Below, piece after piece: positions 11,284 to 63,925 of a stretch of DNA of 64,000 nucleotides. A program made the position numbers and the translations under genes. Position 1 is the stretch's first letter. Every line of letters begins with the position of its first letter. Below the pieces are notes generated by a model, which was not told the origin of the DNA, did not search any database, and was given only the letters and a program-made list of their open reading frames with translations. The stretch comes from a bacterium (GTDB lineage Bacteria; Patescibacteriota; Saccharimonadia; CAILAD01; GCA-016700035): the NCBI GenBank assembly GCA_016700035.1, contig CP064998.1, positions 398,790 through 462,789 on the forward strand, in the 5' to 3' direction.

Positions 11284-11943
11284 CTAGGTTTTGAGCAGAC
11301 CAAGCAATGAGAGTAGCATCGTAGTTGGGGTGGAGAGGCCAGATGGATTTGGCGTATAAGATTCATCGACGGGATATCCTAGTACTGACGACATCATAAT
11401 CCAAAAATCATCCTTTTCTTGTTGAGTCCATTGGCTATAAGACTTACCTAGCTGTATTTCATTATAAGTAATAAAAACTTGCACTGTGTCACCAAACATA
11501 CCCTGCAAGCTTGCTACATTACTTACGTTCCAGTTAGCTAGTGATTGGTCAAAGCTCGTTGTGCTAGAAAACATGCCTTGCATTTCTATTGCACTGCTAA
11601 CATCCCAATTATTAAGGGGCTGGTTGAAGTCAGTAGCACCTGCAAACATACCATTCATACTGGTTACGCTGCCAACATTCCAGTCATTTAAAGGTTGGTT
11701 GAAGGTATCGGCTTTAAAAAACATACTGATCATATCTGTCACATTGCCAACATTCCAGTTATTTAAAGGTTGGTTGAATCTAGTATAAGCAAACATACCT
11801 CCCATATCTGTCACATTGCCAACATCCCAGCTATTTAAGGGCTGGTTGAAGGCGCTACTTTGCATAAACATACCGTCCATCCTGGTTACATTGCTGACAT
11901 TCCAATTATTTAGGGGGTTGATTGAAGGCGCTGCTTTGTGCAA
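11284..11943 (-). CDS. Giant sensor kinase copy 1, middle segment (DUF285-type repeats), out of frame relative to its flanks
   Basis: Matches the copy-2 protein in frame. It is separated from the flanking segments by G4-versus-G5 and G5-versus-G4 homopolymer differences at 11327-11330 and 11914-11918. Confidence 0.6.
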   Translation of the reverse strand: MHKAAPSINPLNNWNVSNVTRMDGMFMQSSAFNQPLNSWDVGNVTDMGGMFAYTRFNQPLNNWNVGNVTDMISMFFKADTFNQPLNDWNVGSVTSMNGMFAGATDFNQPLNNWDVSSAIEMQGMFSSTTSFDQSLANWNVSNVASLQGMFGDTVQVFITYNEIQLGKSYSQWTQQEKDDFWIMMSSVLGYPVDESYTPNPSGLSTPTTMLLSLLGLLKT

Positions 11944-19855: not shown

Positions 19856-22800
19856 CTAGTGCCTCCCAGGAGTAAGGTTAACAGCTAGATTTGGTTCAAT
19901 CTTAGAGTTAAACTTCATACCCTGACTTTCAACATACTCCGTCATGACCGGCAAGTGTGACTCTAACCAAGGCTTGAGTGGGGTGAGGGCAGTTTCGGCT
20001 GAGACTTGACCAACTGTAGTAATCTGACTGAGCTTAGCGGCTACCTGACCAAGCATGGCATAGCCATTAGCGAAGGTTGGAACTTGACCAGTAGCTAAGA
20101 GCTTCTCAGCTGGCAAGCGCATAGCATCAATCTGGTCATTTAATTCCTTAGTAGTAGTCTCCATGAAGCTAACTCGTTGACTGTCAATATTACGTTCAAA
20201 GCTGAGAGTAGCTTGAGCTTGTTTGTTTAAGGAACGTAAGCGCCAGCGAGCCCGGTAGGTAAACAGTACCATTAAGCCAGCAAAGATAGTTAGACAGATG
20301 AAGACTCCCACAGTGTAAGGGTTCAAGCCCATGCGGCCAACTACTAGAATAACAATCTCAAAGATTAACATTAGTGCCACTGTACTAACTACTGGCAACC
20401 AAACTCCAGTTCGTCGCATTAAGTGGGGGAGATCTTGTTTATCTAGTTGAACTAAGCCAGCACTGGCTTCAGTGGAGTCTTGGTTAGCTTGGAGCAAGTT
20501 AGCGGTATCATGACTCATAATCTCTAATGAGGCACCAATTACTTTAATCTCATGGGCCATGTGGGGTAGGGCAGTCTGAGCTAACTCTAAGCTACCTCGC
20601 ATAATTTGCAATGGTGTATTGAGGTAATGCGAGCTTAGGTTAACAAAGTCTGCTCGCAACTGCTTACTAACTCGGTAGCGTCTTAAGAGTTTGTCTAAGT
20701 GATTATACACTTGCTGTTCGCGCCAGGTTTGGTAGAGGTAGAAGATAGCTAGCGCTACTAACAGAATGAGTAAACTAGCTGGTGCATAACTAGCACTGGG
20801 ACCGAGGGCTCCGATGTAGCCACGAAGTTTTTCGGTGAAGCTACCACTACCATCTTGCACTCGTTGGGGAGCTGGAGTAACACTTGGCTTTGGCTTATAC
20901 ACTGGTGTACCAGGAACTGGCGTGTTGGTTCTGGTGTCAGTGGTTGGAACTTCGGGATCCGGGGTTGGGGTAACAGTAGTGGTTGGTGATGGGGTGGGGT
21001 CTGGTGTAACGCTTGGAGATGGTGATGGGGTGGATGGAGTGAGGGTAGTGCCAGACACCGGGCTAGTGTAAGGGCTAGTACCTACACTATTAATGGCTGC
21101 CACTCTAAAGTCATAGCTAGTGCTGGGGTTTAGGTTAGTTAGTACATGGGTAGTTGGTAATGGACCTTGGGTTGGAGCATTAATCCAGGTACTACTAGAA
21201 GAGGCTTTGTACTGGACTTGGTAGCTGGTGATGGGGCTATTACCATCGTCAGCTGGTGGTTGCCAGTTGAGCTTCATGGATGTAGTGGTTACATCCGTGA
21301 TGGAGGGAGAGAGAGGGGCGGAGGGGGCTGTAGCTGGGCAGTCTTTACCGGCATCATTTATTGTCCAGCTTTTGTTAGTGATGATGCTTTGGCGTTGAGC
21401 TTCAGCATTACAGTATTTGCTAGTGCCAGCATCAAAAATAACTGAGCTTTCTAGGTTTTGAGCAGACCAAGCAATGAGAGTAGCATCGTAGTTGGGGGTG
21501 GAGAGGCCAGATGGATTTGGCGTATAAGATTCATCGACGGGATATCCTAGTACTGACGACATCATAATCCAAAAATCATCCTTTTCTTGTTGAGTCCATT
21601 GGCTATAAGACTTACCTAGCTGTATTTCATTATCAGTAATAGAAGCTTGTACTATGTCACCAAACATACCCTGCATACTTACTACATTACTGATATTCCA
21701 ACTATCTAGTGATTGGTCAAAGCTCGTTGTGCTAGAAAACATGCCTTGCATTTCTATTGCACTGCTAACATCCCAATTATTAAGGGGCTGGTTGAAGTCA
21801 GTAGCACCTGCAAACATACCATTCATACTGGTTACGCTGCCAACATTCCAGTCATTTAAAGGTTGGTTGAAGGTATCGGCTTTAAAAAACATACTGATCA
21901 TATCTGTCACATTGCCAACATTCCAGTTATTTAGAGGTTGATTGAATCTAGTATAAGCAAACATACCTCCCATATCTGTCACATTGCCAACATCCCAGCT
22001 ATTTAAGGGCTGGTTGAAGGCGCTACTTTGCATAAACATACCGTCCATCCTGGTTACATTGCTGACATTCCAATTATTTAGGGGTTGATTGAAGGCGCTG
22101 CTTTGTGCAAACATAAATCTCATATCTGTCACATTGCCAACATCCCAGCTATTTAAGGGCTGGTTGAAGGCGCTGCTTTGTGTAAACATATATTGCATGC
22201 CTGTTACATTGCTGACATCCCAATTATTTAAGGGTTGGTTGAAGGCATCGGTTTCAAAAAACATACCTTCCATATTTGTTGAATTGCTGACATCCCAATT
22301 ATTTAGTGGTTGATTGAAGCTAGTACCACCTGCAAACATACCTTTCATATTTGTTGAATTGCTGACATTCCAATTATTTAGGGGTTGATTGAAGGCGCTG
22401 CTTTGTGCAAACATAAATCTCATATCTGTCACATTGCCAACATCCCAGCTATTTAAGGGCTGGTTGAAGGCGCTGCTTTGTGTAAACATATATTGCATGC
22501 CTGTTACATTGCTGACATCCCAATTATTTAAGGGCTGGTTGAATGAACCTGCTTCCGTGAACAAATTTGATACATCGGTAACATTACTAACATCCCAATT
22601 TTCAATATTAGAATTAAAACTTGATGCCCCTTCAAACATACTAACCATGCCTGTTACCTGACTTAAGTCTGGCGTATCAGTGGCAGTAAAGGTTGTAATA
22701 TTCTTAGCGTCACGGAACATTTGACTCATATCCTGCCAGGCAATATCGCCCCATTGTTTGACATCTATAATCTTTTCTTGATCGCCATTAGATTGATACA

Positions 22801-25800
22801 TGTGTGGGAAAGTGCCAGTTATGGCAATGTCATATTCACCGGCAGAACCATAGGTACAAGTTACGTTACCGGTTTGATTGGAGTGTTCTGGAGTCCCATC
22901 GTTATTGCAATCTACGTTGTAGTTATATGCGTAGTTGCCATTAGTAGGAATGGTGTATTGGTTATTGTTGCTAATGCCGGGGTTGTCGGTTTTGACACGC
23001 ATTATGAAAGGATCTTGAGGGCAGCTTTCTCCACTATCGTTGATTGTCCAGCTAAAGTTAGTGATGATACTTTGGCGTTGAGCTTCAGAATTACAGTATT
23101 TGCTAGTGCCAGCGTCAAATGTGACCGAGCTTTCTAGGTTTTGAGCAGACCAAGCAATTAAAGTAGCGTCGTAGTTGGGGGTGGAGAGGCCGGATGGATT
23201 GGGTACATAGGACTCATCGACAGGGTAGCCTATATACCAAGACATTTGCCACCAAAAATTATCTTTTTCAGCTTGAGTCCATTGAGCGTAGGATTTACCA
23301 AGTTGCTGTTCAAAGCCTTGTTTAGCAAGTAATATATAATCGCTAAACATGCCTTGCAAACTTGCTACATTACTAACATTCCAGTTAGCTAGCGATTGAT
23401 CGAAGCTTGTTGTGTTAGCAAACATACCCGTCATGACTGTTACATTGCTAACGTTCCAGTTATTTAGGGGTTGATTGAAACTAGTATTGACTGCAAACAT
23501 TAAACTCATATTTGTTACATTGCTAACATCCCAGTCATTGAGAGGTTGATTGAAGGCACTGGTTCGCCATAACATAAAGCTCATATCTGTTACATTGCTA
23601 ACATTCCAGCCGTTGAGTGGTTGATTAAAAGATGTAGCAAAGGCAAACATACCTTCCATATTAGTCACAACACTCGTATCCCAATTATTTATATTTTGAT
23701 TAAAATATTGAGCACCGGTAAACATGTTCTCCATTGTTACAACACTGCTTGTGTCCCAGTTATTGAGGGGCTGGTTGAATGGTACGCTGCTTTCGGCCAT
23801 TTCCCATCCAAACATCCAAGACATATCAACAACATTGCTAACGTCCCAGTTATTGAGAGGTTGATTAAAGGCACTAGTTTCCATAAACAATTGACTCATA
23901 TTTGTAACGTTACTAACATCCCAGTTATTTAAAGGTTGGTTAAAGCTGTCTGTTCCATAAAATAAGCCGAACATATCAACAACACTACTAACATCCCAGT
24001 CATTGAGGGGTTGATTGAAGGCATCGGCATCTTGAAACACCCGGTGCATACTGGTAATGTTACTAACATCCCAATTATTTATATTTGTATCAAAGTTTGT
24101 CGCGTTAGCAAAGACGTTATCCATACTGGTTACCTGGCTTAAGTTTGGGGTATCTGTAGCGGTAAACACAGATATATTTGAAGCACCAGAGAACATTCCA
24201 GTCATATCTTGCCATTCAATATCACCCCATTGTTTGACGTCTATAATCTTTTCTTGATCGCCACTACTAGGTTGATACATATGTGGAAAAGTGCCAGTTA
24301 TAGCAATGTCGTACTCCCCGGCAGAACCATATGTGCAAGTAACATTGCCAGTTTGGTTGGTGTATTCTGGAGTACCATCGTTATTGCAATCTACGGCGTA
24401 ATTATATGTATAGTTGTTATTAGCAGGAATGGTGTATTGGTTATTGTTACTGGCACCGGGGTTATCAGTTTTGACGCGCATTATGAAAGGTTGTTGAGCA
24501 CAAGCACTGGTTGTAAAAGTTTGGTCTTGGCCATAGCCAGTGCCATAACCGTTGGTAGCATATGCTCGGTAATGATATGTTGTGCCACAGGTTAGCCCAC
24601 TTATATTAGCAGTTATTGTCCCAACATAACGCTTCAGTCTATAACCTAAGTTGTCTTGGATGTAGAGATTACCGTTAGGACTAAATGCAAGATCATGCGG
24701 GAATGTAAATTCTGTTAGCCCTGAGCCACCACTGCCGAACTGCGATATGTAAAAACCATTACTGCTAAACTTTTGGACACGGTGATTAAAGAAATCCATA
24801 ACATAGACATTGCCGTCTTTGTCAATCGCTGCATTGCTAGGATGATTGAATTGTCCGTTACCGCTACCACCGCTACCCCACTTAGTAACGTATGCACCTG
24901 TAGAATCAAATTTTTGAATGCGATTATTATATGTATCGGATACATATATATAGCCAGATCCATCTACAGTTACACCATGTGGTTGACTGAACTGACCGTT
25001 ACCACTACCATTTGAACCAAATTTCATGAGGAAGTTGCCATTAGAATCGAATTTTTGAATACGATTATTATCCGTGTCGGCAATAAATATATTATCGCTA
25101 TCATCTATGTAAATACTGGTCAGAGCATTGAACTGTCCATCGCCCGTTCCGCTAGAGCCCCACTTAGAAACATATACCCCACTAGGGTTAAATTTCTGAA
25201 CTCGATGATTGTGTGTGTCTGCAACGTATATACTGCCTGCGCTGTCAACTGCCACGTCGTTTATAGCACTTAATTGTCCATCACCACTACCACTGACGCC
25301 AAACTTCATTAAAAAGTTACCGTCAGCATCAAATTTTTGAATACGGTGTCTCTCTGAATCTGCAACGTAGACATTACCACTAGAGTCTGTAGTAATACCA
25401 TAAGCAAAGCCAAACTGACCATCGCCAGTTCCGCTAGAGCCATGAGTGGTAATTGTGGCACTACTGTCGGTGGCTGTTGAGCCATAGCTGTTAGTTGTAC
25501 CATATTGAAATCCACGAGCTGTAATTGCATCTGGCGAAGTAACACCGTTTAGGGTAGCGGATACATCTGTAATATTTGTTGCCGAATTTGTATCAACTTG
25601 CGGTGCGCGAGTAGAGGCACAATCCTGCCCGCCATCACTAATTGTCCATGAATGATTGGTTATAATATTCTGGCGCTCAGTAGTAGAGACACAGTATTTG
25701 CTGGTGCCTCCGTTAAATGTAATTCCGTTATTTAAAGCTTGCTGACTCCATGCGGTTAGCGTTGTGTCATAATTACTTGTTGAAAGCCCTGATCCACCGG

Positions 25801-27202
25801 AAAACATATTTGACATATTAGTTACGTTACTAACATTCCAGTTATTTAACGATTGATTGAAAGATGTAGCATAATTAAACATACCCGACATATTAGTAAC
25901 ACTACTAACATTCCAGTCATTTAGCGATTGATTGAAAGATGTAGCATAATTAAACATATTTGACATATTAGTTACGTTACTGACGTTCCAATTATCAATA
26001 GATTGATTAAAGGTAGTGTTATTAAACATTTCCCTCATATTAATAACGTTACCTGTATCCCAATTGTTAATGGATTGATTAAACGACTGCGCACCATAAA
26101 ATAACATGTGCATATATATCACATTGCTTACGTCCCAATTATTTAGGGGTTGGTTGAATGATTTTGCATTGTGGAACATGCCACTTATATTAGTTACATT
26201 ACTGACATCCCAGTGGTTTATATTACTATTGAAACTGTTCGCAACACCCGCACCAGTGAACATAGATGACATATCGGTTACTTGACTTAAGTCGGGAGCA
26301 TCAAGTGCTGATATCTGGAATACACCCGGAACATCACCCTGATATTCAAATGACTGGCCCATAGATTTCCACTGGTTCGTTCCCCATTGTAATACATCAA
26401 GAACCTTTCTCTGTCCGACTGCAGTGTATGCGTGAAAGCTTGGGAATAAACCTGTAATACTTATTTCATATTGGCCTGGTACTCCGTAATTGCAGGTATA
26501 GTTGCTGGTTTGATTTGTGGCTTCTGGAGTACCGTCATTATTACAGTCAACGGTGTAGTTATAGGGTGAAGCTGTAACTCCTATTGTAAACTGATTATTA
26601 CCGTTTGAACCTGGGTTATCTGTCTTAACCCTAATTATAAACTCCCCAGGCGCCCAATCGCCGTTGTAAGTAACCGAGTTGTCAGTTGAAGTTGATGCTT
26701 GGTTAGTGCCACTAGCTATGTTCTGGGCTGAGATTAGTTCTTGGGCTATGGTTGGGATGATGGTTCCTGCACTGGTAGCTTGGATACGTACTTCATAGGT
26801 TGTTTTGTTGAAGGTTCCGGCTTCGGTAATTGATTGGATTTGTTGTCCTGGTGCAGTACCACCTAGAGTTATGTCTGGGTTAGTAAAGGTAGCCTCATCA
26901 ATAGCTTCATTAAACTGCACGGTAAAGACAGAAGTATAGGAAGGGTTAGCATCAGGGGTACCAGTTTTTTGATTTATTGATACAGTTAAGCTACCCGGAG
27001 CTGCCTTACTGTCATGACGGTCATTATATAAACCGGCATATAGAAAGCTAATTAAGGTAATTGCAATAGCCGATAAGAAGATGAAGAGTCTTTGACCTGA
27101 AGTAATATTAAGCCGTTGTTTTAACTTCTTCTTAGAACGACGCCGGTGCTCAGCCTTATTTACAGCATCAGTAACAGACTTCTTATTGCTCATAGGATCC
27201 AA
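19856..27202 (-). CDS. Giant (2448 aa) surface repeat protein / sensor histidine kinase, copy 2
   Basis: Domain order: signal-anchor, Ig-like region, DUF285 block, NHL propeller, FN3-like, DUF285 block, linker, DUF285 block, FN3, Pro/Thr linker, TM, H-box 'SHYLNTPL', 2 TM, start of HATPase (N-box region). It ends prematurely at '...NLTPGRH' because of a 2-bp insertion relative to copy 1. Confidence 0.75.
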   Translation of the reverse strand: MDPMSNKKSVTDAVNKAEHRRRSKKKLKQRLNITSGQRLFIFLSAIAITLISFLYAGLYNDRHDSKAAPGSLTVSINQKTGTPDANPSYTSVFTVQFNEAIDEATFTNPDITLGGTAPGQQIQSITEAGTFNKTTYEVRIQATSAGTIIPTIAQELISAQNIASGTNQASTSTDNSVTYNGDWAPGEFIIRVKTDNPGSNGNNQFTIGVTASPYNYTVDCNNDGTPEATNQTSNYTCNYGVPGQYEISITGLFPSFHAYTAVGQRKVLDVLQWGTNQWKSMGQSFEYQGDVPGVFQISALDAPDLSQVTDMSSMFTGAGVANSFNSNINHWDVSNVTNISGMFHNAKSFNQPLNNWDVSNVIYMHMLFYGAQSFNQSINNWDTGNVINMREMFNNTTFNQSIDNWNVSNVTNMSNMFNYATSFNQSLNDWNVSSVTNMSGMFNYATSFNQSLNNWNVSNVTNMSNMFSGGSGLSTSNYDTTLTAWSQQALNNGITFNGGTSKYCVSTTERQNIITNHSWTISDGGQDCASTRAPQVDTNSATNITDVSATLNGVTSPDAITARGFQYGTTNSYGSTATDSSATITTHGSSGTGDGQFGFAYGITTDSSGNVYVADSERHRIQKFDADGNFLMKFGVSGSGDGQLSAINDVAVDSAGSIYVADTHNHRVQKFNPSGVYVSKWGSSGTGDGQFNALTSIYIDDSDNIFIADTDNNRIQKFDSNGNFLMKFGSNGSGNGQFSQPHGVTVDGSGYIYVSDTYNNRIQKFDSTGAYVTKWGSGGSGNGQFNHPSNAAIDKDGNVYVMDFFNHRVQKFSSNGFYISQFGSGGSGLTEFTFPHDLAFSPNGNLYIQDNLGYRLKRYVGTITANISGLTCGTTYHYRAYATNGYGTGYGQDQTFTTSACAQQPFIMRVKTDNPGASNNNQYTIPANNNYTYNYAVDCNNDGTPEYTNQTGNVTCTYGSAGEYDIAITGTFPHMYQPSSGDQEKIIDVKQWGDIEWQDMTGMFSGASNISVFTATDTPNLSQVTSMDNVFANATNFDTNINNWDVSNITSMHRVFQDADAFNQPLNDWDVSSVVDMFGLFYGTDSFNQPLNNWDVSNVTNMSQLFMETSAFNQPLNNWDVSNVVDMSWMFGWEMAESSVPFNQPLNNWDTSSVVTMENMFTGAQYFNQNINNWDTSVVTNMEGMFAFATSFNQPLNGWNVSNVTDMSFMLWRTSAFNQPLNDWDVSNVTNMSLMFAVNTSFNQPLNNWNVSNVTVMTGMFANTTSFDQSLANWNVSNVASLQGMFSDYILLAKQGFEQQLGKSYAQWTQAEKDNFWWQMSWYIGYPVDESYVPNPSGLSTPNYDATLIAWSAQNLESSVTFDAGTSKYCNSEAQRQSIITNFSWTINDSGESCPQDPFIMRVKTDNPGISNNNQYTIPTNGNYAYNYNVDCNNDGTPEHSNQTGNVTCTYGSAGEYDIAITGTFPHMYQSNGDQEKIIDVKQWGDIAWQDMSQMFRDAKNITTFTATDTPDLSQVTGMVSMFEGASSFNSNIENWDVSNVTDVSNLFTEAGSFNQPLNNWDVSNVTGMQYMFTQSSAFNQPLNSWDVGNVTDMRFMFAQSSAFNQPLNNWNVSNSTNMKGMFAGGTSFNQPLNNWDVSNSTNMEGMFFETDAFNQPLNNWDVSNVTGMQYMFTQSSAFNQPLNSWDVGNVTDMRFMFAQSSAFNQPLNNWNVSNVTRMDGMFMQSSAFNQPLNSWDVGNVTDMGGMFAYTRFNQPLNNWNVGNVTDMISMFFKADTFNQPLNDWNVGSVTSMNGMFAGATDFNQPLNNWDVSSAIEMQGMFSSTTSFDQSLDSWNISNVVSMQGMFGDIVQASITDNEIQLGKSYSQWTQQEKDDFWIMMSSVLGYPVDESYTPNPSGLSTPNYDATLIAWSAQNLESSVIFDAGTSKYCNAEAQRQSIITNKSWTINDAGKDCPATAPSAPLSPSITDVTTTSMKLNWQPPADDGNSPITSYQVQYKASSSSTWINAPTQGPLPTTHVLTNLNPSTSYDFRVAAINSVGTSPYTSPVSGTTLTPSTPSPSPSVTPDPTPSPTTTVTPTPDPEVPTTDTRTNTPVPGTPVYKPKPSVTPAPQRVQDGSGSFTEKLRGYIGALGPSASYAPASLLILLVALAIFYLYQTWREQQVYNHLDKLLRRYRVSKQLRADFVNLSSHYLNTPLQIMRGSLELAQTALPHMAHEIKVIGASLEIMSHDTANLLQANQDSTEASAGLVQLDKQDLPHLMRRTGVWLPVVSTVALMLIFEIVILVVGRMGLNPYTVGVFICLTIFAGLMVLFTYRARWRLRSLNKQAQATLSFERNIDSQRVSFMETTTKELNDQIDAMRLPAEKLLATGQVPTFANGYAMLGQVAAKLSQITTVGQVSAETALTPLKPWLESHLPVMTEYVESQGMKFNSKIEPNLAVNLTPGRH
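22047..22536. repeat. Intragenic tandem duplication with a 300-bp period in copy 2 (about 190 bp identical segment repeated)
   Basis: 22081-22236 is identical to 22381-22536. The + strand pseudo-ORFs 22089-22313 and 22389-22661 share their first ~50 aa. Confidence 0.7.
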
Positions 27203-55938: not shown

Positions 55939-56013
55939 GGTCCCATCGTCTAACGGTTAGGACGCCAGATTCTCAATCTGGAAATCGGAGTTCGATTCTC
56001 CGTGGGATCACCA
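55939..56013 (+). tRNA. tRNA-Glu (anticodon CTC)
   Basis: Cloverleaf built by hand. Acceptor 'ggtccca'/'tgggatc' with discriminator A and CCA. T-arm 'cggag ttcgatt ctccg'. Anticodon stem 'ccaga'/'tctgg' with loop 'ttCTCaa'. Confidence 0.8.
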
Positions 56014-56019
56014 AAACAA

Positions 56020-56046
56020 GAGCCCCTGAAAGTGGGGTTTTTGTTT
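56020..56046 (+). terminator. Weak hairpin plus T-tract after the tRNA
   Basis: 'agcccctgaaagtggggtttttgtttt'. Confidence 0.4.
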
Positions 56047-56310
56047 TGGTGGTTTCTCTACGCGAGAAACGAATCGAACACCGGTTCGAAGAACAAGGCA
56101 GCGCACAGGAGTTTACTCCGAGCACTGCTGCAGTTCGCAAGCCTTTAGGCTTATTCCCCGTGAGGTCACCAAGTAGAAAATACAACTAATAACAGATAAG
56201 AAAGTGTTCTAAAATATATTCAAGACACTTTCTTTTTTGTATCCCACCTCTGTAACATCGAGTTCTAATCCCGTATGGTCACGAAGCTGTTTGCATCCCT
56301 TTCACCATGG

Positions 56311-56319
56311 TGTATAATA
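56311..56319 (+). promoter_or_regulatory. Extended -10 element (TGtgTATAAT) upstream of the DGR target gene
   Basis: 'tgtataat' 65 bp before ATG 56384. Confidence 0.4.
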
Positions 56320-56383
56320 TACGTAAGCAGTTTATTTCAATAGATAAAGCTACAAATATAACTAAACAAGAAAGGAGCCGACC

Positions 56384-57811
56384 ATGGACAGCCAAACCGT
56401 GACCCAGACTATTAACGTTATCGTTGGTGGCGACTCTGGTGCTGGTGGCAACCTGGCCGACACTGGTACATCATTATTCCTGCCAACCCTGATTGCCCTA
56501 ATCCTCCTGACAGCCGGCCTCTTCCTGTGGTACAAAACTACTCGTCGTTCATCTCACTTTAAATTAGCCAACATACGTAAATCGAGCTCTCGGGGCTTCA
56601 GTATCCTCGTCCTGCTTACCCTTGCTACTGTGCTTTCTACCACCAACCTCCCCATTGCCTCTGCCGCTCCCACTCTCTCCCTCGGTACCGACCAGAACAC
56701 CATTCACATAACCGTTCCTCAAGTTGGTGGTACGGCTACGGCTACTACAACTCTCACCAGTGGCACTGCTAACGCCAGCGGTTACACCCTAACCGCCAGC
56801 TTGACTGAACCAGAACCAGGCATTGGCATCAAACTCAAGGGTGGTGATGTCACGACTGACACTAGTCTCAACCCTGGAGACGCTCCACTGACTCTCAAAG
56901 CTACCGACGCTGCATCAAGCAATGATACAACCGACGTAACCCTCACCTTTGCTATAGATGGTAGTGTTACGCCCGGGCAAAAAGAACTAAAGCTCAACTA
57001 CGCTGTCGCTGACAATGAAGCAGAGGGTGAAGCAGGATCTACCCTCCAAGCCTTCACTAGCAGTGACTGTAGTGCACTACCTATCTACACTGGCACCAAT
57101 GAAGAAGCTGTCATCACCCTCACTGACACGAGAGGCGACAACCAAACCTACCAAGTAGCCAAACTAGCCGACAACAACTGCTGGATGTTAGAGAACCTCA
57201 AGCTTGGTAGTACCACAGGCACCCTCACCCTGACACCAAGTGACTCAGACGTAGCCAGCAACTTCACCTTGCCGCAACTCACCACCACCGGCACTACTGA
57301 CCCTGACAACCCCGGAGCCTACGGCCCGGTCACCGGTGATACTGGAGAGGGCGAAACCAACTACGGTTACCTCTACAACTGGCCTGCAGTGACAGCTGGT
57401 GAATCCAGAGCCTCCCACACTGAAACAGACGGTGATGCACCATACTCCATCTGCCCGAGCGGATGGCGCTTGCCAACCGTTGGCTTCAGCTATGACGAAG
57501 AGACAGAGACGGCAACCGCTTCTGGTGATTACTCAAACCTTGACATCGCCTTTGGCGGTACTGGCCAGTACGCAGACAGTGGTGCAAACATTGCCAAATG
57601 GCAACACGATGGACCGTTTAAAGGTACTTTTGCTGGCGGCTGGGACGAGGGCTTCGTCAGCCAGGGTGTCTCCGCTGGCTTGTGGTCTCGTTCAGCCTTC
57701 CCAGACTATGTCGACGACGCAGACCTCGCGGGCTTCAATGCTGGAGTAGTCTATCCAGGCGTCGTCGCTCCTCGGGGCGTCGGGCTAGCTGTTCGCTGTC
57801 TCTTACAGTAG
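56384..57811 (+). CDS. DGR target protein: secreted/anchored Thr-rich protein with C-terminal Fib_succ_major/DUF1566-like (C-type-lectin-fold) domain
   Basis: N-terminal TM 'LFLPTLIALILLTAGLFLWY'. 'NNCWMLENLKLG' (the CWMAENL signature of TIGR02145/DUF1566). Ends '...GLAVRCLLQ'. The last 61 codons form the VR. Confidence 0.8.
   Translation: MDSQTVTQTINVIVGGDSGAGGNLADTGTSLFLPTLIALILLTAGLFLWYKTTRRSSHFKLANIRKSSSRGFSILVLLTLATVLSTTNLPIASAAPTLSLGTDQNTIHITVPQVGGTATATTTLTSGTANASGYTLTASLTEPEPGIGIKLKGGDVTTDTSLNPGDAPLTLKATDAASSNDTTDVTLTFAIDGSVTPGQKELKLNYAVADNEAEGEAGSTLQAFTSSDCSALPIYTGTNEEAVITLTDTRGDNQTYQVAKLADNNCWMLENLKLGSTTGTLTLTPSDSDVASNFTLPQLTTTGTTDPDNPGAYGPVTGDTGEGETNYGYLYNWPAVTAGESRASHTETDGDAPYSICPSGWRLPTVGFSYDEETETATASGDYSNLDIAFGGTGQYADSGANIAKWQHDGPFKGTFAGGWDEGFVSQGVSAGLWSRSAFPDYVDDADLAGFNAGVVYPGVVAPRGVGLAVRCLLQ
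57628..57810 (+). repeat. DGR variable repeat (VR) at the 3' end of the target gene
   Basis: Aligns base for base with 59914-60096. About 24 mismatches, all at TR adenines (TR AAC codons against VR GTC/TCC/GGC/GAC/CTC/TAT etc.). Confidence 0.85.
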
Positions 57812-57861
57812 AATCAGATTCATCTGAGGCTACTGTCTGGGTAGCCCACAAAGCGAGGCAT

Positions 57862-57893
57862 GGCGGTTAGGGGTGACCACCCCTAACCCCGCC
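57862..57893 (+). other. GC-rich hairpin about 50 bp downstream of the VR; candidate DGR homing cis-structure or terminator
   Basis: 'ggcggttagggg tgaccac cccctaaccccgcc' forms a near-perfect 12-bp stem. Confidence 0.45.
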
Positions 57894-57939
57894 GAGTCGA
57901 CTGGGTGCCCCAGCAAACGAAAATAACAAAATCTATGTA

Positions 57940-57967
57940 TTGACATGCTAACTAAAGTGTATACAAT
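57940..57967 (+). promoter_or_regulatory. Sigma70-like promoter TTGACA-16-TACAAT driving the toxin-antitoxin pair; probably a leaderless transcript
   Basis: 'ttgacatgctaactaaagtgtatacaat', with the ATG at 57975 about 7-8 nt after the -10. Confidence 0.4.
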
Positions 57968-57974
57968 GGTTAGT

Positions 57975-58256
57975 ATGAGTACTGTATTGAATGTAAAAAT
58001 TGATCCCGCTCTAAAGAAGAGGGCTCAGAGTGTTGCCAAAGAGCTCGGCTTGCCTATGAGTATAGTGGTAGCTGCCAGTTTGCGAGAGTTCGTTAATACC
58101 AGGAGCATAACTATATCGGATTCGCCACGGCTTAGGCCAGAAGTGGAGGCCGAATTACTGGCTATGTCAAAAAAAGTACGTGCTGGTGAGCTAGATGATT
58201 ATTCGCCTGCTTTTAATAATATAGAAGAAAGCTTTGCGTGGCTTAATGCAAAATGA
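57975..58256 (+). CDS. DinJ/RelB-family antitoxin
   Basis: 'MSTVLNVKIDPALKKRAQSVAKELGLPMSIVV...' matches the DinJ N-terminal ribbon-helix-helix pattern. It overlaps the toxin gene by 4 nt (ATGA). Alternative ATG starts at 57966 and 57945. Confidence 0.65.
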   Translation: MSTVLNVKIDPALKKRAQSVAKELGLPMSIVVAASLREFVNTRSITISDSPRLRPEVEAELLAMSKKVRAGELDDYSPAFNNIEESFAWLNAK

Positions 58257-58513
58257 CTATAAGGTATAGTAAAAAATTCAGAAAACAGTACAAAAAACTT
58301 ACTCCAAAGATGCAACAAAAAACCACAGACGCCATAAAGCTCTGGTCGCAAAAGCCCAATGACGAGTCGCTTCGGTTACATAAACTTAGCGGTAAGATGA
58401 GCCGTTTTTACAGCATTGATATAGCTGGCGACTTACGAGCACTGTATGAAATTGTAGATAACGAAGTATTTTTGTACCAAATGGTCGGTACGCATAGTCA
58501 GTTATACGGCTAA
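58253..58513 (+). CDS. YafQ/RelE-ParE-family type II toxin (mRNA interferase)
   Basis: 'YSKKFRKQYKKL...' and C-terminal 'MVGTHSQLYG' (compare YafQ 'RTGTHAALFG'). 86 aa. Confidence 0.75.
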   Translation: MTIRYSKKFRKQYKKLTPKMQQKTTDAIKLWSQKPNDESLRLHKLSGKMSRFYSIDIAGDLRALYEIVDNEVFLYQMVGTHSQLYG

Positions 58514-58582
58514 CGTAAGCCGAGGGGGGCAGCAGATCTAAAACTAATCTTTTAACCGAGTTGTCTAGATTCAAAATAAAAT

Positions 58583-59686
58583 TTGTCAGCAAACACAATG
58601 AAAATAAACACCCAACACAACCGTACGTCGTGGCTCTCAAAAGAACTCGGGAAAGCTTATGTAGACGCCCGACGTGGTAAAACAAAGAAGCCAGAAGTGG
58701 AAAAGTTCGACAAAATTGCCAAATCAGAACTGGTGGCGCTGGCACAAGAAATTCATACGCGTACCTACATGCCACGACCGTCAACTGCTTTCATTGTCAA
58801 CAAACCCATCAAACGAGAGATATTTGCAGCTGCCTTTCGTGATCGAGTAGTACATCACTTTTTGTTCAACCAAGTAAGTAGTTGGTGGGATGCCCGGTTT
58901 ATTGAAGATAACTACAGTTGCCGCCTCGGCAAGGGTACACTGTATGGTATTCGCCGGCTTGACCACCACATTCGTTCAGTCAGTCGTAACTACACCCGTC
59001 CAGCCTACATACTAAAGCTTGATTTTCAGGGATACTTCATGAGTCTGGAGCGCAAAAAGCTCTACAGCCGGGCCATGTGGGGACTGAATCGGCAGTTCCC
59101 TAATCAGGGCTACGCCTACCAATTGTGTAAGTTTTTGTGGAAGGTCATTATCTTTAACGACCCACTGAAAGAGGCAGTGTTCAACTGTCCGCGTAGTGCT
59201 TGGAAAGGTCTGCCGCCCAGCAAGAGTTTGTTTCACCAGCCCAAAGGCCGTGGTATTGCCATTGGCAACCTAACCTCACAGCTACTGAGTAATATCTATC
59301 TTGACCAACTAGATCGATTTGTGACGCTGGAGCTCGGCTTCAAACACTATGGACGCTACGTTGATGATTTCTACATCGTTTCAAGTGATAAAAATGAACT
59401 GGTTGAAGCGACCAGGACAATAGAGCGCTATGTAGAGGATCAGTTGGCACTAAAACTGCATCCTCATAAGCGACACCTGCAGGAATGTAGCCGTGGTGTG
59501 GCCTTCCTTGGGGCGGTTGTCTACCCATTTCGCTTGCACCCAGGCAAACGCTTGAAACGCAACTTACTAGCGGCACTTTCGAACCCGGATTGCTCAAAAG
59601 AAACCGAAGCATCGTATCGAGGGCTGGTGAAGCATTATAAACACAAAAAGCTTCTTGGTGGTTTAAAACTTCGGGGGGTACAATAA
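58583..59686 (+). CDS. DGR-type reverse transcriptase
   Basis: RT motifs 'LDFQGYFMSL' (2), 'IGNLTSQLLSNIYLDQLD' (4, with the DGR-specific SQ in place of SP) and 'YVDDFYIVS' (5, YxDD). About 367 aa, typical for a DGR reverse transcriptase. No Avd-like ORF is adjacent. Confidence 0.85.
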   Translation: MSANTMKINTQHNRTSWLSKELGKAYVDARRGKTKKPEVEKFDKIAKSELVALAQEIHTRTYMPRPSTAFIVNKPIKREIFAAAFRDRVVHHFLFNQVSSWWDARFIEDNYSCRLGKGTLYGIRRLDHHIRSVSRNYTRPAYILKLDFQGYFMSLERKKLYSRAMWGLNRQFPNQGYAYQLCKFLWKVIIFNDPLKEAVFNCPRSAWKGLPPSKSLFHQPKGRGIAIGNLTSQLLSNIYLDQLDRFVTLELGFKHYGRYVDDFYIVSSDKNELVEATRTIERYVEDQLALKLHPHKRHLQECSRGVAFLGAVVYPFRLHPGKRLKRNLLAALSNPDCSKETEASYRGLVKHYKHKKLLGGLKLRGVQ

Positions 59687-59913
59687 CAGTATGCTTTGCT
59701 TGGCGGCAACCGGGTAATGCTTGGTGGCAACTATTGCTTGTTACCCGGTGAGTAGTCAGGCAGATAAGCATATGTAAGAGACAATACTCACTAGTCTTGA
59801 TGTGATGAAGACTAGTTCTGTGGGAGTAGCGCCACCAAGACTTGCCTGCATTCGGTACGCTGAGTGCAGGATAATGAGTAGTATTGTAAGGTAGTCCGGT
59901 GGTGTGTTCCGGG

Positions 59914-60096
59914 TTTTGCTGGCAACTGGGACGAGGGCTTCGACAACCAGGGTGACAACGCTAACTTGTGGTCTCGTTCAGCCTTCCCAGACAATGTCGA
60001 CAACGCAGACAACGCGAACTTCAATGCTGGAGAAGTCAATCCAGGCAACAACGCTCCTCGGGGCAACGGGCTAGCTGTTCGCTGACTCTTACGGTA
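59914..60096 (+). repeat. DGR template repeat (TR), downstream of the reverse transcriptase
   Basis: Cognate of the VR. Carries A (mostly as AAC) at every variable position. Not inside a long ORF. Confidence 0.85.
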
Positions 60097-60121
60097 TATT
60101 TTGTGGTGGCTCTATGGCTTG

Positions 60122-62716
60122 CTACACCTCAATCGGCTCATCTTCCGAGTCATTATCTTTAGCGTCTTGTGTTTCATGAGACTCGGTTTTATCTGCTTTT
60201 TTCTTTTTCGTTTCATCTTCGTACTCATACGCATACAACTTCCTTGAAGACTCTATGACTTTCCGAGCCATAGCCTTATCTCCCTCGTCTTCCAGAAGCA
60301 AAGTCTCCCCAGACATCGGTTCCTGCGATCGTATAGCACTCAGCCTTGCATAGAAATTGTAACTGGGTAGATTGGCTATCTCGCCTTCATCGATAAATGG
60401 CTTAAATAATGGTAGTACCAATTGCTCATCTACCGGGCTACCCGTCCTAAAGCTAATAACTGTACCAACATTGGCTAAGATTATCTGGACTAGTCTTTGT
60501 TCGTCCTGCTGTGCTGTAGACTGCTCAGCCATAGTCAGAAACAGCTTGTATTTACGAGCTTCGGATAGCATCTGGACAAACGGCATCGTCGCAAAGTTCT
60601 GGAATTCATCGACGTAGAGGTAAAATGGTTCTCGCTCGTCTTGGGTTAACCGAGATCTACGTAAAGCTGCTAACTGTAGCTTGGCCAGCACAGCTGTACC
60701 AAATAGTTCTGACGTATCCTCTCCCAGGTTGCCCTTGCTGAAGTTGCAGATCAGGATCTTGCCAGAAAACAGGATATCATCAAAGTCGATGGTCGATTTG
60801 GGTCTGCACATAACTCGTTTGGTACTGGGCGAGAATTCAAAGCGACCAATTTTGCTGGTTACTCCATGGCTCATCTTGACTCGTTGCATCGCACCGGCTT
60901 TACCGAGTTCATTCTGCCAGAAGTTCTTTAAGGTTCCAGCTGGCAGTGCATTGGTTATTTTCTTACGGTAGTTGTCGTTAGTGAGGAGTTCAAAGATAGT
61001 GAAGATAGTGGGATCGTCAGTTGTTAGGGCTGTTTGTATAGCGTTGCGGAGCACATACTCAATCCGATGTCCTCCTGAATCATCGTCGGAGAATATTTTA
61101 CGGAGTACCGATATGACTGATTCAGTCACTCGATCTTTTTCTCGCTCCAAAGCACTACCAGTCAGACCATCTGGTATTTCTAGCAGGTTCATAGCCAGTG
61201 GATGGTCAATATCGTCAGGATTAAAGTAGATAACATCTTTGATTCTATCTTTTGGAATGTATTTGAGCAGTGTTAAAGCCATATCTCCGTGAGGATCAAT
61301 GACGGCTAATCCCTTACCATCTTTAATATCTTGAATGATACCGTACTGAAGCATAGTGGTTTTACCGTTTCCTGTTCCGCCAATAATATAGACATGCCGT
61401 TCACGTTCAGCCTCAGTGAGGCCTATTAAGGTTTCGCTGCCAAGGTGACTGTTCTTGCCTAAGGTCACATCAAGATACTTTGCACTCTTGAGAGAGGTTG
61501 GTGCTGGCAAGGTTTTGCTGAGTGACTTTGAGATGTTTTCAGTGCGAGCTGACGTACTATGAGGGAAATGGTATAAGGCACTCAGTTCAGTCGAGCTTAA
61601 AACATTACTATTTCTATGCACTAGTGACGGCAAGCGATGATCGAGTACCCATATCCGATGTCGCACACCAAGCCACGGTATCCAAGCTCTCGTGGTTCGT
61701 AGTCTTTGCCAGGTTGGGGTAGCGTAGGTAGCCATCGAGTTAGCTAGTGATTGGGCTCTAGATTTAGCTCGGGCTTTATCTGTAGCCACAATCTGAGTCC
61801 GGATATCGACATAAAATAAGTCTTGGGTTAACTTGTCATGCATTCGGTCCAAAAGCTCTTGTTCGGCCGGAGGGATATGGGTATTAGTAGGTAGACTGTT
61901 AGTAGCTTTAGAGCTTGCTGGTATATCGTGATACAGAAAACCATAAATCATACTCCAGGCAATAACAAACGGTAGCTTTACAATCGCAAAGATAATCCGA
62001 AAGATGCTTTTATGACCAAACTTTTTCTCAAGGCTTGATCCCGACCAGTAACCCTGGCGTATCTTACGATCAATTGCAAAAGCCTCAGAGATAACAGCTG
62101 GCGTGACGACGAGTTGTAAACTAACCCGTTCATTATCTTCAAGCTTTGTCATCGAGCTGGTTAAGTAGGCGACTGGATCATGTTCATGCAGGGACTTTGA
62201 CGTATCCAGGGGCATAGCGTAGTGTTCAGTTTGTTTGTAGGTTTGCAGAGCCATAAATCCTTTGGTCTCACGACTATCTTTAACGACTTGAACTTTTACG
62301 TCAGGACTGTAGGCAGCAACTGCCTGCCGGATAAGTTCCTCGGCTGCCTTACTTGACCGTATAAGATAACGAATACCTTTGTCTTTGGTTGATACTATCT
62401 CTAGCGAAAATGACGGTACATAGCGTAAAATTACATCCTTGAAACTTCGTGATTTAAGGAGGCCATGTAGTACTGAGAATAGCTGCGTGGTGGCAAGTGG
62501 AGCTTTGTTGGTAAAAGCCGGTGGTGTCAACTCAAGTAAAACTGCTTCCTGTTTGTACTTTCGGTAGTAATTATAGAGTCTAAGGATAAGACCAATAACG
62601 AAAGCCAGTACAGTGATTAACACAACAAGGAGCCCTAACCACGGTAAAATGGTTTGTAGTCTTTCAACTATCTGCCCACCAGAATTATCCGTCATGGCAG
62701 CTCCTGTAGTTTCCAA
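60122..62716 (-). CDS. Membrane-anchored P-loop ATPase, type IV secretion coupling protein-like (TraD/VirD4/TrwB or HerA-FtsK-related)
   Basis: N-terminal TM 'LGLLVVLITVLAFVIGLIL'. Walker A 'IIGGTGNGKTT'. Walker B 'FYLYVDEFQNF'. Acidic C-terminal tail. Confidence 0.55.
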   Translation of the reverse strand: METTGAAMTDNSGGQIVERLQTILPWLGLLVVLITVLAFVIGLILRLYNYYRKYKQEAVLLELTPPAFTNKAPLATTQLFSVLHGLLKSRSFKDVILRYVPSFSLEIVSTKDKGIRYLIRSSKAAEELIRQAVAAYSPDVKVQVVKDSRETKGFMALQTYKQTEHYAMPLDTSKSLHEHDPVAYLTSSMTKLEDNERVSLQLVVTPAVISEAFAIDRKIRQGYWSGSSLEKKFGHKSIFRIIFAIVKLPFVIAWSMIYGFLYHDIPASSKATNSLPTNTHIPPAEQELLDRMHDKLTQDLFYVDIRTQIVATDKARAKSRAQSLANSMATYATPTWQRLRTTRAWIPWLGVRHRIWVLDHRLPSLVHRNSNVLSSTELSALYHFPHSTSARTENISKSLSKTLPAPTSLKSAKYLDVTLGKNSHLGSETLIGLTEAERERHVYIIGGTGNGKTTMLQYGIIQDIKDGKGLAVIDPHGDMALTLLKYIPKDRIKDVIYFNPDDIDHPLAMNLLEIPDGLTGSALEREKDRVTESVISVLRKIFSDDDSGGHRIEYVLRNAIQTALTTDDPTIFTIFELLTNDNYRKKITNALPAGTLKNFWQNELGKAGAMQRVKMSHGVTSKIGRFEFSPSTKRVMCRPKSTIDFDDILFSGKILICNFSKGNLGEDTSELFGTAVLAKLQLAALRRSRLTQDEREPFYLYVDEFQNFATMPFVQMLSEARKYKLFLTMAEQSTAQQDEQRLVQIILANVGTVISFRTGSPVDEQLVLPLFKPFIDEGEIANLPSYNFYARLSAIRSQEPMSGETLLLEDEGDKAMARKVIESSRKLYAYEYEDETKKKKADKTESHETQDAKDNDSEDEPIEV

Positions 62717-62764: not shown

Positions 62765-63925
62765 TTATTTACTGAACTGTGAATCTTGTATTGGTAGATA
62801 GCCTTGAGTGTCGAGTTGCATGACTACACCAAGAGTCAATGCGTTGCGATTTAGCCGGATAGTGTAGCGACGAGACTTGTCTCCATCCAATGGTCGCAAG
62901 AAGTTTTGCTGTCGTAATTTACGGATGGCTTTCGAGATGTTAACGTGTGATATTTCGTCTGCAAATAGTGGCTTGAAATCAGCAGCTTGAACAATGTCTT
63001 TTTCTATAGCTATTTTGAGCATTTTGTACTCGAGTTCATTAATGCGTTGTTTTTCTAGTGCATAATCAAGGGCAGGTACAATAATTTTTCCTTTTGTAAA
63101 AGACGCATCGAGTAATTCGTTGACATTGTCTACTTCATTTTTGACACCACGTAACATGTACTCACACCACTTGAGTATTCCAGGATCAGTGTTTTTGTCA
63201 GCCTCGGCAAGCATAGCGTAATACTGGTTTCTATCATTGCCAAATACGGCTGCAGGGCTTAGTAAACGCATACCGTCCCCATCAATAAAACCTTGTTTTG
63301 TGAGCATCGCATAAGTAAGAAGCCTGACGACTCGTCCGTTGCCATTACCAAAGGGGTGAATCCACGTAAAGTAGTGGTGTGCTACCGCATCTTTCAGTAG
63401 ATCGAACTGTGGATCAACCTTTTGATTTATAAAATCAAAAAGGTTGTCCATTAAATCTGGAATATCTGACCAGGCTGCAAGGGAGATATTCGATTTACTT
63501 ATACTACGTGGTTCATTTCTATACGCTCCAGCACGCGTATCACCCTCCTTAGACGGGTCTAGGCCATCAACGACGATCTGGTGCAAACGGAGGATCAGCG
63601 CTTTATTTATGATGAGGTCTGAACCTTGCTTCTCGATAAAGTCGATACCCTTCTCGATGTTTGTGATTTCACGGATCTGTTCGGTCTGCTTTGTAGACTG
63701 ATCTTCATCGTCCCGAACGGCTTCAACAAAATTCGCAACAGTCGTATGGTTACCTTCTATGCGTGCGGAAGCAATACTCTCGATAGCATGGAAGAGCGAT
63801 TTAAGTTCAAAGAAAAGCCAGGGCGGAGTTGAACCGCTGACTCGCCGATTACGAAGACGTTCAAGCTCAATAACTAGCTTGATAGTTTCGGTGTCTACGG
63901 CTGGTTTCGGGATATATAGTTTCAT
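62765..63925 (-). CDS. Fic-family protein (AMPylation / phosphocholination type)
   Basis: Canonical Fic motif 'HPFGNGNGRVVRLL' (HPFx[D/E]GNGR). C-terminal winged-helix-like region. Confidence 0.85.
   Translation of the reverse strand: MKLYIPKPAVDTETIKLVIELERLRNRRVSGSTPPWLFFELKSLFHAIESIASARIEGNHTTVANFVEAVRDDEDQSTKQTEQIREITNIEKGIDFIEKQGSDLIINKALILRLHQIVVDGLDPSKEGDTRAGAYRNEPRSISKSNISLAAWSDIPDLMDNLFDFINQKVDPQFDLLKDAVAHHYFTWIHPFGNGNGRVVRLLTYAMLTKQGFIDGDGMRLLSPAAVFGNDRNQYYAMLAEADKNTDPGILKWCEYMLRGVKNEVDNVNELLDASFTKGKIIVPALDYALEKQRINELEYKMLKIAIEKDIVQAADFKPLFADEISHVNISKAIRKLRQQNFLRPLDGDKSRRYTIRLNRNALTLGVVMQLDTQGYLPIQDSQFSK

Follow-up and report, generated by a model that had tools for sequence, protein, structure and literature searches.

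The toxin-antitoxin (TA) pair that lies between the VR and the reverse transcriptase (RT) of a DGR in the 64,000-nucleotide stretch of DNA analysed here (hereafter the window) is very probably an ordinary autonomous type II TA cassette inserted in a permissive spacer of the element, a passenger and not a part of the DGR. The insertion would have occurred in a recent ancestor of one species-level lineage of Saccharibacteria, when ~676 bp landed in the short spacer between a conserved structure following the VR and the start codon of the RT, in a DGR of the target-RT-TR type. The first-pass annotation of this DNA had located the pair between the VR and the RT, which we confirmed, the two genes being co-oriented with the RT and with the template repeat (TR). 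It had also entertained the pair as a component of the DGR, which is contradicted by 18 TA-less relatives with the same DGR and flanks, by an empty paralogous cassette in a metagenomic contig, and by homologues of the pair outside DGRs.

The element that holds the pair (Table 1) is a working, bona fide DGR: 24 of the 25 VR/TR mismatches in the window are at TR adenines. The host genome is that of a Candidatus Saccharibacteria, and the related RTs, of which 172 were found in genome contigs, are mostly in contigs labelled Saccharibacteria. Diversification of the VR continued after the TA pair arrived, because the VRs of TA-bearing loci differ at TR-adenine positions while their TR remained identical. 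In pairwise comparisons these VRs differ by 19-39 nt, with 82-100% of the differences at TR-adenine positions and the TR identical in six loci; between the window and locus L082 all 21 VR differences are at such positions.

Table 1. Features of the DGR and of the TA cassette it contains, in window coordinates
Feature	Position	Strand	Basis or remark
Promoter-like site upstream of target gene	56290-56318		
DGR target gene	56384..57811	+	VR at 3′ end, 57628-57810
Post-VR hairpin	57805..57836	+	Spans target stop codon; variable
Conserved structured element 3′ of hairpin	57837..57913	+	Compensatory changes
8-nt direct repeat CAGCAAAC, left copy	57911..57918	+	Insertion junction
Putative sigma-70-type promoter of TA cassette	57940..57967	+	TTGACA 57940-57945, 16-nt spacer, TACAAT 57962-57967
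Operator-like inverted repeat CTAAC...GTTAG	57948..57973	.	Brackets perfect palindrome TGTATACA (57958-57965), overlaps -10
Antitoxin gene, 93 aa, RelB/DinJ-like, RHH N-terminus	57975..58256	+	Consistent sub-cut-off RelB/DinJ matches
Toxin gene, 86 aa, RelE/YafQ fold	58253..58513	+	Pfam, NCBIfam, Foldseek
Spacer from toxin stop to RT start	58514..58597	+	84 nt, without terminator
8-nt direct repeat CAGCAAAC, right copy	58587..58594	+	Just upstream of RT ATG
DGR RT	58598..59686	+	Pfam RVT_1
TR	59914..60096	+	VR/TR comparison; 100% identical in six other TA-bearing loci
Terminator-like hairpin with T-run 3′ of TR	60164..60182	+	

Comparison with related elements reveals the insertion. When both TA proteins were searched by tblastn against 80 related RT loci, only one was positive (L001, whose RT is 98% identical to that of the window), and we thus rejected the idea of a conserved accessory pair of the DGR. 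The TA-less relatives include L002, L003 and L004, with RTs 96%, 92% and 88% identical to that of the window, and 15 more. In these 18 clade members (RT 71-96% identical) the end of the VR is separated from the start of the RT by 84-220 nt; the distance is 787 nt in the window and 793 nt in L001, where the pair is present. The end of the RT is 215-259 nt away from the TR in the window, in L001 and in the 18 clade members. L002 and L003 have empty sites whose alignment with the window ends at 57916/57917; for L002 it picks up again at 58622, the 5′ flank of the RT and its first codons having been replaced by the insertion. Metagenomic contig L083 carries tandem paralogous cassettes, the upstream one with the empty site and the downstream one with the filled site.

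The two copies of the octamer CAGCAAAC at the borders enclose an insert of ~676 nt. This repeat resembles a short duplication of the target or a microhomology; by a rough estimate, the probability of a chance octamer match near both junctions is ~0.01-0.02. In a more distant clade (RT ~50% identical) the detection of VR and TR failed and TA content was judged from the ORF layout only: the small ORFs between target and RT were target-gene fragments or an accessory ORF of 247-383 aa, not TA genes. The exception in this clade is a pair of PIN and antitoxin genes upstream of the L034 cassette.

The identity of the toxin is solid by family and by predicted fold. The 86-aa protein scored above the cut-offs of Pfam YafQ_toxin (PF15738; E=1.6e-10, 41.6 bits, cut-off 30) and of NCBIfam RelE_StbE (TIGR02385; 41.7 bits, cut-off 27.9), and below that of the narrower YafQ model TIGR00053 (37.5 bits, cut-off 87.25). 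Its AlphaFold model (pLDDT 88.5) was matched by Foldseek to HP0894, to the YafQ of E. coli and V. cholerae, to YoeB and to RelE, with probability 1.0, a lowest E of 2e-6 and a highest TM of 0.77. Among the residues invariant in 37 members of the family are K11, Q12, D60, R62, H81 and S82, and H43 and Y85 are nearly invariant. The catalytic residues of E. coli YafQ are H50, H63, D67, H87 and F91. In the alignment with HP0894, which is a sequence alignment only, H43, D60, H81 and Y85 of the toxin correspond to the positions of H50, D67, H87 and F91, and the counterpart of the CH histidine of HP0894 (H63 in E. coli YafQ) is a residue other than histidine. The toxin alleles of the window and L001 differ by 10 synonymous and 2 non-synonymous changes (dN/dS 0.04, from small counts). 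The 67-aa toxin found on many contigs might be thought a truncation, but it results from a different start call and the 86-aa ORF is intact in all copies.

The upstream protein looks like a RelB/DinJ-like antitoxin, all its matches being below cut-off. NCBIfam RelB_DinJ (TIGR02384) matched with E=5.4e-9 and 36.2 bits (cut-off 45.65) and Pfam RelB with 18.4 bits (cut-off 22.4). A profile built from 30 antitoxin homologues had E. coli DinJ (4q2u and 4ml0) as its top PDB matches, at E=0.02 and over the RHH region; phmmer with the single sequence against the PDB gave noise only. The structural model (pLDDT 74) has helices at 11-24, 28-43, 55-69 and 83-92, that is, two helices at the position of the RHH and two C-terminal ones where the toxin-binding tail is expected, and its Foldseek matches to RHH antitoxins were all non-significant. 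We accepted the assignment because the RelB/DinJ matches are consistent and because it agrees with the order and overlap of the genes. The first-pass description of a DinJ/YafQ-type pair, within the RelB/RelE superfamily, thus holds for the toxin, by family score and by Foldseek matches to YafQ and HP0894, and stays below family cut-offs and structural significance for the antitoxin. A mechanical call starts the antitoxin ORF at 57945, giving 103 aa; this start is unlikely, because homologous cassettes share only the equivalent of 57975. Between the window and the L001 allele the antitoxin gene has 3 synonymous and 2 non-synonymous changes (dN/dS 0.19, again from small counts).

The two ORFs overlap by the four nucleotides ATGA (58253-58256), as originally annotated, and the antitoxin-first layout recurs among the called genes of homologous loci. 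By analogy with DinJ-YafQ and RelBE, one may propose how the cassette would work. Its promoter would produce a two-gene mRNA, from which the antitoxin would be translated first and the toxin by coupling across the overlap. The RHH antitoxin, either alone or in complex with the toxin, would bind the palindrome that overlaps the -10 and thereby repress the promoter; upon loss of the antitoxin, the free toxin would cleave mRNA in a ribosome-dependent manner. Autoregulation and toxicity are thus predictions made from the better-known systems.

The candidate promoter of the cassette matches the consensus at 11 of 12 positions and is the top-scoring site in 56000-60400. Yet the window contains six such 11/12 matches, against ~1.9 in shuffled sequences, and the match by itself is therefore weak evidence. 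Its conservation in seven other contexts of the cassette is real evidence, from sequence comparison, for a functional promoter beyond chance. In the seven upstream regions that could be read, the similarity to the window starts exactly at the -35, which is TTGACA (once TTGATA); the 16-nt spacer is always kept, the -10 is TACAAT, TAAAAT or TACAAC, and the start position follows it after 7-8 nt (7 nt in the window). Six of the seven have an ATG at that position, and L081 has an ACG, with an in-frame ATG within the -10. Synonymous sites are saturated between cassette copies from different neighbourhoods (dN 0.07-0.16); that the promoter nucleotides were nevertheless kept indicates that their conservation was selected. 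An inverted repeat TAACC...GGTTA is also conserved in other cassettes, together with a palindrome, TGTATACA or TGTATAAA, that overlaps the -10; it is a putative binding site for the antitoxin.

The location of this promoter ~7 nt before the ATG had been taken in the first-pass annotation as a sign of leaderless mRNA, and its position and the spacing conserved in the other contexts fit this reading. Were transcription to start 7-8 nt 3′ of the -10, the transcript would begin at the ATG, and there is no room for a Shine-Dalgarno motif between the -10 and the antitoxin ATG; the TA mRNA is thus probably leaderless or nearly so. This layout may be common in the genome and not specific to the pair, since a Shine-Dalgarno-like motif precedes only 10 of the 36 larger ORFs in the window and for several ORFs the mechanically called start comes 6 nt after the end of a TACAAT or TATAAT.

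The cassette is also found far from any DGR. Seven homologous toxins (91, 85, 83, 82, 78, 76 and 74% identical) occupy at least eight unrelated neighbourhoods; no RT is nearby in any of them, and wherever the upstream flank could be read it contained an ORF of 93-115 aa that directly precedes the toxin and overlaps its start. One copy adjoins SmpB, an RHH-PIN pair and DUF488 and is followed by a NUDIX hydrolase gene; another has a thioredoxin-like gene upstream and RidA further downstream. Others are flanked by transketolase and fructose-bisphosphate aldolase, or by an RHH-PIN pair and an S8 peptidase, and the remaining ones adjoin an MJ0043_C-domain gene, a glycosyltransferase, NUDIX/NAPRTase, or a histidine kinase. 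These neighbourhoods reveal the promiscuity of the cassette, which appears to be self-contained and to move between genomic sites.

The VR, the structures downstream of it, the RT and the TR were left intact by the insertion, which can thus be tolerated by the element. None of the 11 other TA-bearing loci has a disrupted copy of either TA ORF. The L001-type DNA is ~97% identical to the window, its toxin allele occurs in 199 blocks of the assembly collection, and the order target-antitoxin-toxin-RT was found in 10 of the 10 places shown for it. The arrangement is therefore not fleeting and may bring some benefit, which counts against a simple passenger. So does the sub-lineage of L083 and L087, where the gap from the RT stop to the TR is stretched to 986 nt by a second pair, encoded on the opposite strand and made up of a PIN toxin and a PhdYeFM antitoxin: this is more than one accident would predict. 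The cassette with two pairs has 23 of 25 VR/TR differences at adenines. The passenger reading is also weakened by the sub-threshold scores on which the antitoxin was assigned, and by the failure to find any other small ORF matching a Pfam toxin family in the window.

These observations call for an assessment of more integrated roles, and notably of the transcription of the RT and TR. In the TA-less L003 and L004 the start codon of the RT is ~20 nt past the conserved CCCAGCAA. This proximity to the structured element leaves no room for a promoter of its own and implies that the RT is transcribed from upstream, the ancestral transcription unit being probably target-RT-TR. After the insertion, the RT and TR may be transcribed from the target-gene promoter, from the TA promoter, or from both. 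Read-through from the latter is possible because the pair is co-oriented with the RT and the sequence separating the toxin gene from the RT has no terminator-like site; the predicted RNA fold of the 84-nt spacer is no better than those of shuffles (z = -0.29). The TA promoter might even have been co-opted, so that the RT and TR depend mainly on an autoregulated promoter and mutagenic retrohoming increases when the antitoxin is degraded, e.g., under stress. This would fit the displacement of the RT's own 5′ flank and first codons, the strong conservation of the promoter, the purifying selection on both genes, and the activity of the DGR in a widely sampled lineage. However, ~18 relatives run the same DGR without the pair, the promoter is the same in kind at other sites and has nothing specific to DGRs, and read-through from the target-gene promoter explains the expression of RT and TR equally well. 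Co-option thus seems quite unlikely to us. It is just as improbable that the TA promoter took over, or adds to, the transcription of RT and TR and that the repeated capture of TA pairs by the DGR cassette, with DinJ/YafQ ahead of the RT and PIN/Phd behind it, reflects selection for retaining or regulating the DGR and not accident; if true, the hypermutation of a surface-protein gene would be coupled to a stress-sensitive, autoregulated TA state.

The pair could instead owe its retention to protecting the DGR, or the surrounding variable island, from deletion by acting as an addiction module. The region is variable, its neighbours in different strains including tRNA-Glu, Replic_Relax, a type IV coupling protein, and Fic or PIN-Phd, and the second pair of L083 and L087, together with the intact genes under purifying selection, would be expected under this hypothesis. 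Yet all other clade members retained their DGRs without the pair, and chromosomal TA pairs can persist selfishly, with no benefit to neighbouring genes; stabilisation therefore seems unlikely. A role in abortive infection or phage defence, independent of the DGR and within a defence island, is very unlikely. Phage defence has been reported for some RelE-type TA systems, and the Fic protein encoded nearby (62765-63925) gives a match to the SoFic defence model (E=1e-44), but neither TA protein matches any PADLOC model and homologous cassettes are surrounded by housekeeping genes, e.g., transketolase, SmpB and NUDIX. Co-option, stabilisation and phage defence are thus possible readings without specific support. 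Finally, the ORFs might be chance or decaying remnants with no function, given that public start calls disagree (67 or 86 aa for the toxin, 93 or 103 aa for the antitoxin) and that the antitoxin scores are under curated cut-offs. This is refuted by full ORFs intact in every copy, by dN far under dS, by hundreds of homologues with invariant residues, and by the confident toxin model with its fold match.

As a TA system, the cassette resembles the DinJ-YafQ of E. coli and V. cholerae and the HP0894/HP0892 of H. pylori, which are also antitoxin-first overlapping pairs with ~90 aa in each protein. The modelled fold of the toxin is similar to those of YafQ and HP0894 (TM 0.62-0.77), its C-terminal GTHSQLY pairs with GSHSELF in the alignment with the HP0894 toxin, the N-terminus of the antitoxin aligns with the RHH region of DinJ, and a palindrome lies over the promoter as in DinJ-YafQ-type systems. 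The pair differs from these systems by the low identity to the solved toxins (20-24%), by an antitoxin under the family cut-offs, by its probably leaderless transcript, and by its host, a Saccharibacteria episymbiont; its toxicity is a prediction.

Concerning its location, TA cassettes such as relBE, higBA, parDE and phd-doc stabilise the arrays of Vibrio superintegrons and genomic islands. Like them, ours is a small unit carrying a putative promoter inside an element that generates variation, and its family is present at many sites; in contrast to them, it is hosted by a retroelement, its insertion occurred in one lineage only, and a stabilising effect is hypothetical. The pair also occupies the position, between target and RT, of DGR accessory genes such as Avd or the ORF of 247-383 aa that immediately precedes the RT in the sister clade. 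Contrary to these genes, it is confined, within the clade's twenty or so cassettes, to a single lineage, and contrary to Avd its predicted folds are RelE and RHH rather than a helical bundle and its homologues are unlinked to RTs. A full-text literature search returned no paper with a title or abstract on TA genes inside a DGR cassette. This arrangement, a variant location for a known kind of module, thus seems to have gone unreported, and does not amount to a new kind of system.

The insertion is nevertheless informative about DGRs. It reveals that foreign genes amounting to ~0.7 kb are tolerated between VR and RT and, in one sub-lineage, a further 0.8 kb between RT and TR, with VR/TR differences still on TR adenines. 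Tolerated inserts help to delimit the segments of a DGR cassette that need to remain contiguous. Genomes of the L083 type, with filled and empty cassettes side by side, provide a natural control for the effect of the TA promoter on the expression of the retroelement. Annotators should also be cautious, since a gene between VR and TR is not automatically a DGR accessory gene.

The insertion took place directly 3′ of the structured element that follows the VR. In the DGR of BPP-1, the target site comprises the IMH and a hairpin or cruciform downstream of the VR, and the sequences just 3′ of the VR must stay intact (Guo et al. 2011, PMC3240598). The element studied here similarly has a hairpin right after the VR, and the TA pair lies beyond it, consistent with this requirement, even if the apex loop GACC is unlike the GRNA consensus of BPP-1-type hairpins. 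The second, far larger element, conserved in sequence and structure, is absent from that study (PMC3240598). Among 22 distinct sequences, it has compensatory changes in 18 of the 25 predicted pairs, and its motifs CAAAGCGAGGC and GAGTCGACTGG are almost invariant; no Rfam family matched in 57600-60400. This structured element may merit a study of its own more than the TA pair.

In one contig related to the window (L083), two paralogous cassettes of the diversity-generating retroelement (DGR) lie in tandem, with reverse transcriptase (RT) segments ~87-88% identical at the DNA level. The upstream cassette lacks the DinJ/YafQ-type toxin-antitoxin pair and the downstream one carries it, so that the two constitute a natural pair of empty and filled sites. 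The sub-lineage represented by L083 and a second locus bearing this pair, L087, also shows another toxin-antitoxin insertion into the DGR type seen in the window, composed of a PIN toxin (139-147 aa) and a PhdYeFM antitoxin (81 aa). The gap between RT and template repeat (TR) is 986 nt with this insert vs 215-259 nt otherwise, and in the cassette that bears it 23 of the 25 differences between the variable repeat (VR) and TR still fall at adenines.

A conserved structured element, preceded by a hairpin, follows the VR and is present in every member of the window's clade with RT identity above 70%. It consists of an outer stem of 11 bp and an inner stem with the cap GTGACCAC, and includes the near-invariant strings CAAAGCGAGGC and GAGTCGACTGG. 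Across 22 distinct sequences, compensatory changes were found at 18 of its 25 predicted pairs. The element had no match in Rfam and is not present 3' of TR. The target hairpin described in the DGR of BPP-1 (PMC3240598) is much smaller, and the element of the window's clade may be a new DGR cis element.

In the window, a tRNA-Glu gene lies upstream of the DGR target gene, whereas the neighbours of the same DGR in other strains (L082, L083, L085) are variously a Replic_Relax gene, a further RT and a PIN-Phd pair. These strain-to-strain differences suggest that the DGR resides in a recombining, island-like region. The window also encodes a Fic-domain protein matching a defence model, next to a type IV secretion coupling-protein-like ATPase.

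Coordinates of the features discussed in the text
Feature	Location	Strand	Remarks
tRNA-Glu	window 55939-56013		~370 nt upstream of DGR target gene
Hairpin	window 57805-57836	+	ahead of structured element
Conserved structured element	window 57837-57913	+	directly 3' of VR
Type IV secretion coupling-protein-like ATPase	window 60122-62716	-	adjoins Fic-domain gene
Fic-domain protein	window 62765-63925	-	PADLOC SoFic defence model, E=1e-44
Tandem paralogous DGR cassettes	L083:1-8163
PIN toxin, PhdYeFM antitoxin	L083:5425-6082	minus	between RT stop and TR
PIN toxin, PhdYeFM antitoxin	L087:1952-2609	minus	between RT stop and TR
Putative PIN/VapC-type toxin, antitoxin-like ORF	L034:4347-5056	minus	reading of translations
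ORF starts with hexamer 6 nt ahead (examples)	window 31642, 40291, 18501 (-)
1664-aa ORF	window 11906-16900	-	very large
2448-aa ORF	window 19856-27202	-	very large

The DGRs of a sister clade (L021-L079), with RTs 44-55% identical to that of the window, have an ORF of 247-383 aa immediately 5' of the RT, in many cases overlapping it, which presumably encodes an accessory protein; in the window's clade, the interval from target to RT contains no such ORF at all. Judging from its translations, an ORF pair directly 5' of the accessory ORF in another Saccharibacteria DGR (L034) resembles a toxin of the PIN/VapC type and the cognate antitoxin. DGR RTs of the Saccharibacteria type also occur on contigs from bins labelled Leucobacter, Clostridia and Prevotella (L016, L029, L078), labels that probably result from binning contamination or host-associated co-binning.

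A hexamer, TACAAT or TATAAT, ends 6 nt ahead of several other mechanically called ORF starts in the window. Among the 36 large ORFs, a Shine-Dalgarno-like motif is present in only 10. This genome may often use leaderless initiation. Finally, the 25 nt preceding the starts of two very large ORFs are identical (CATTAATCTGTGGGAGGCCCCAAGC), which suggests that their 5' regions are duplicated.
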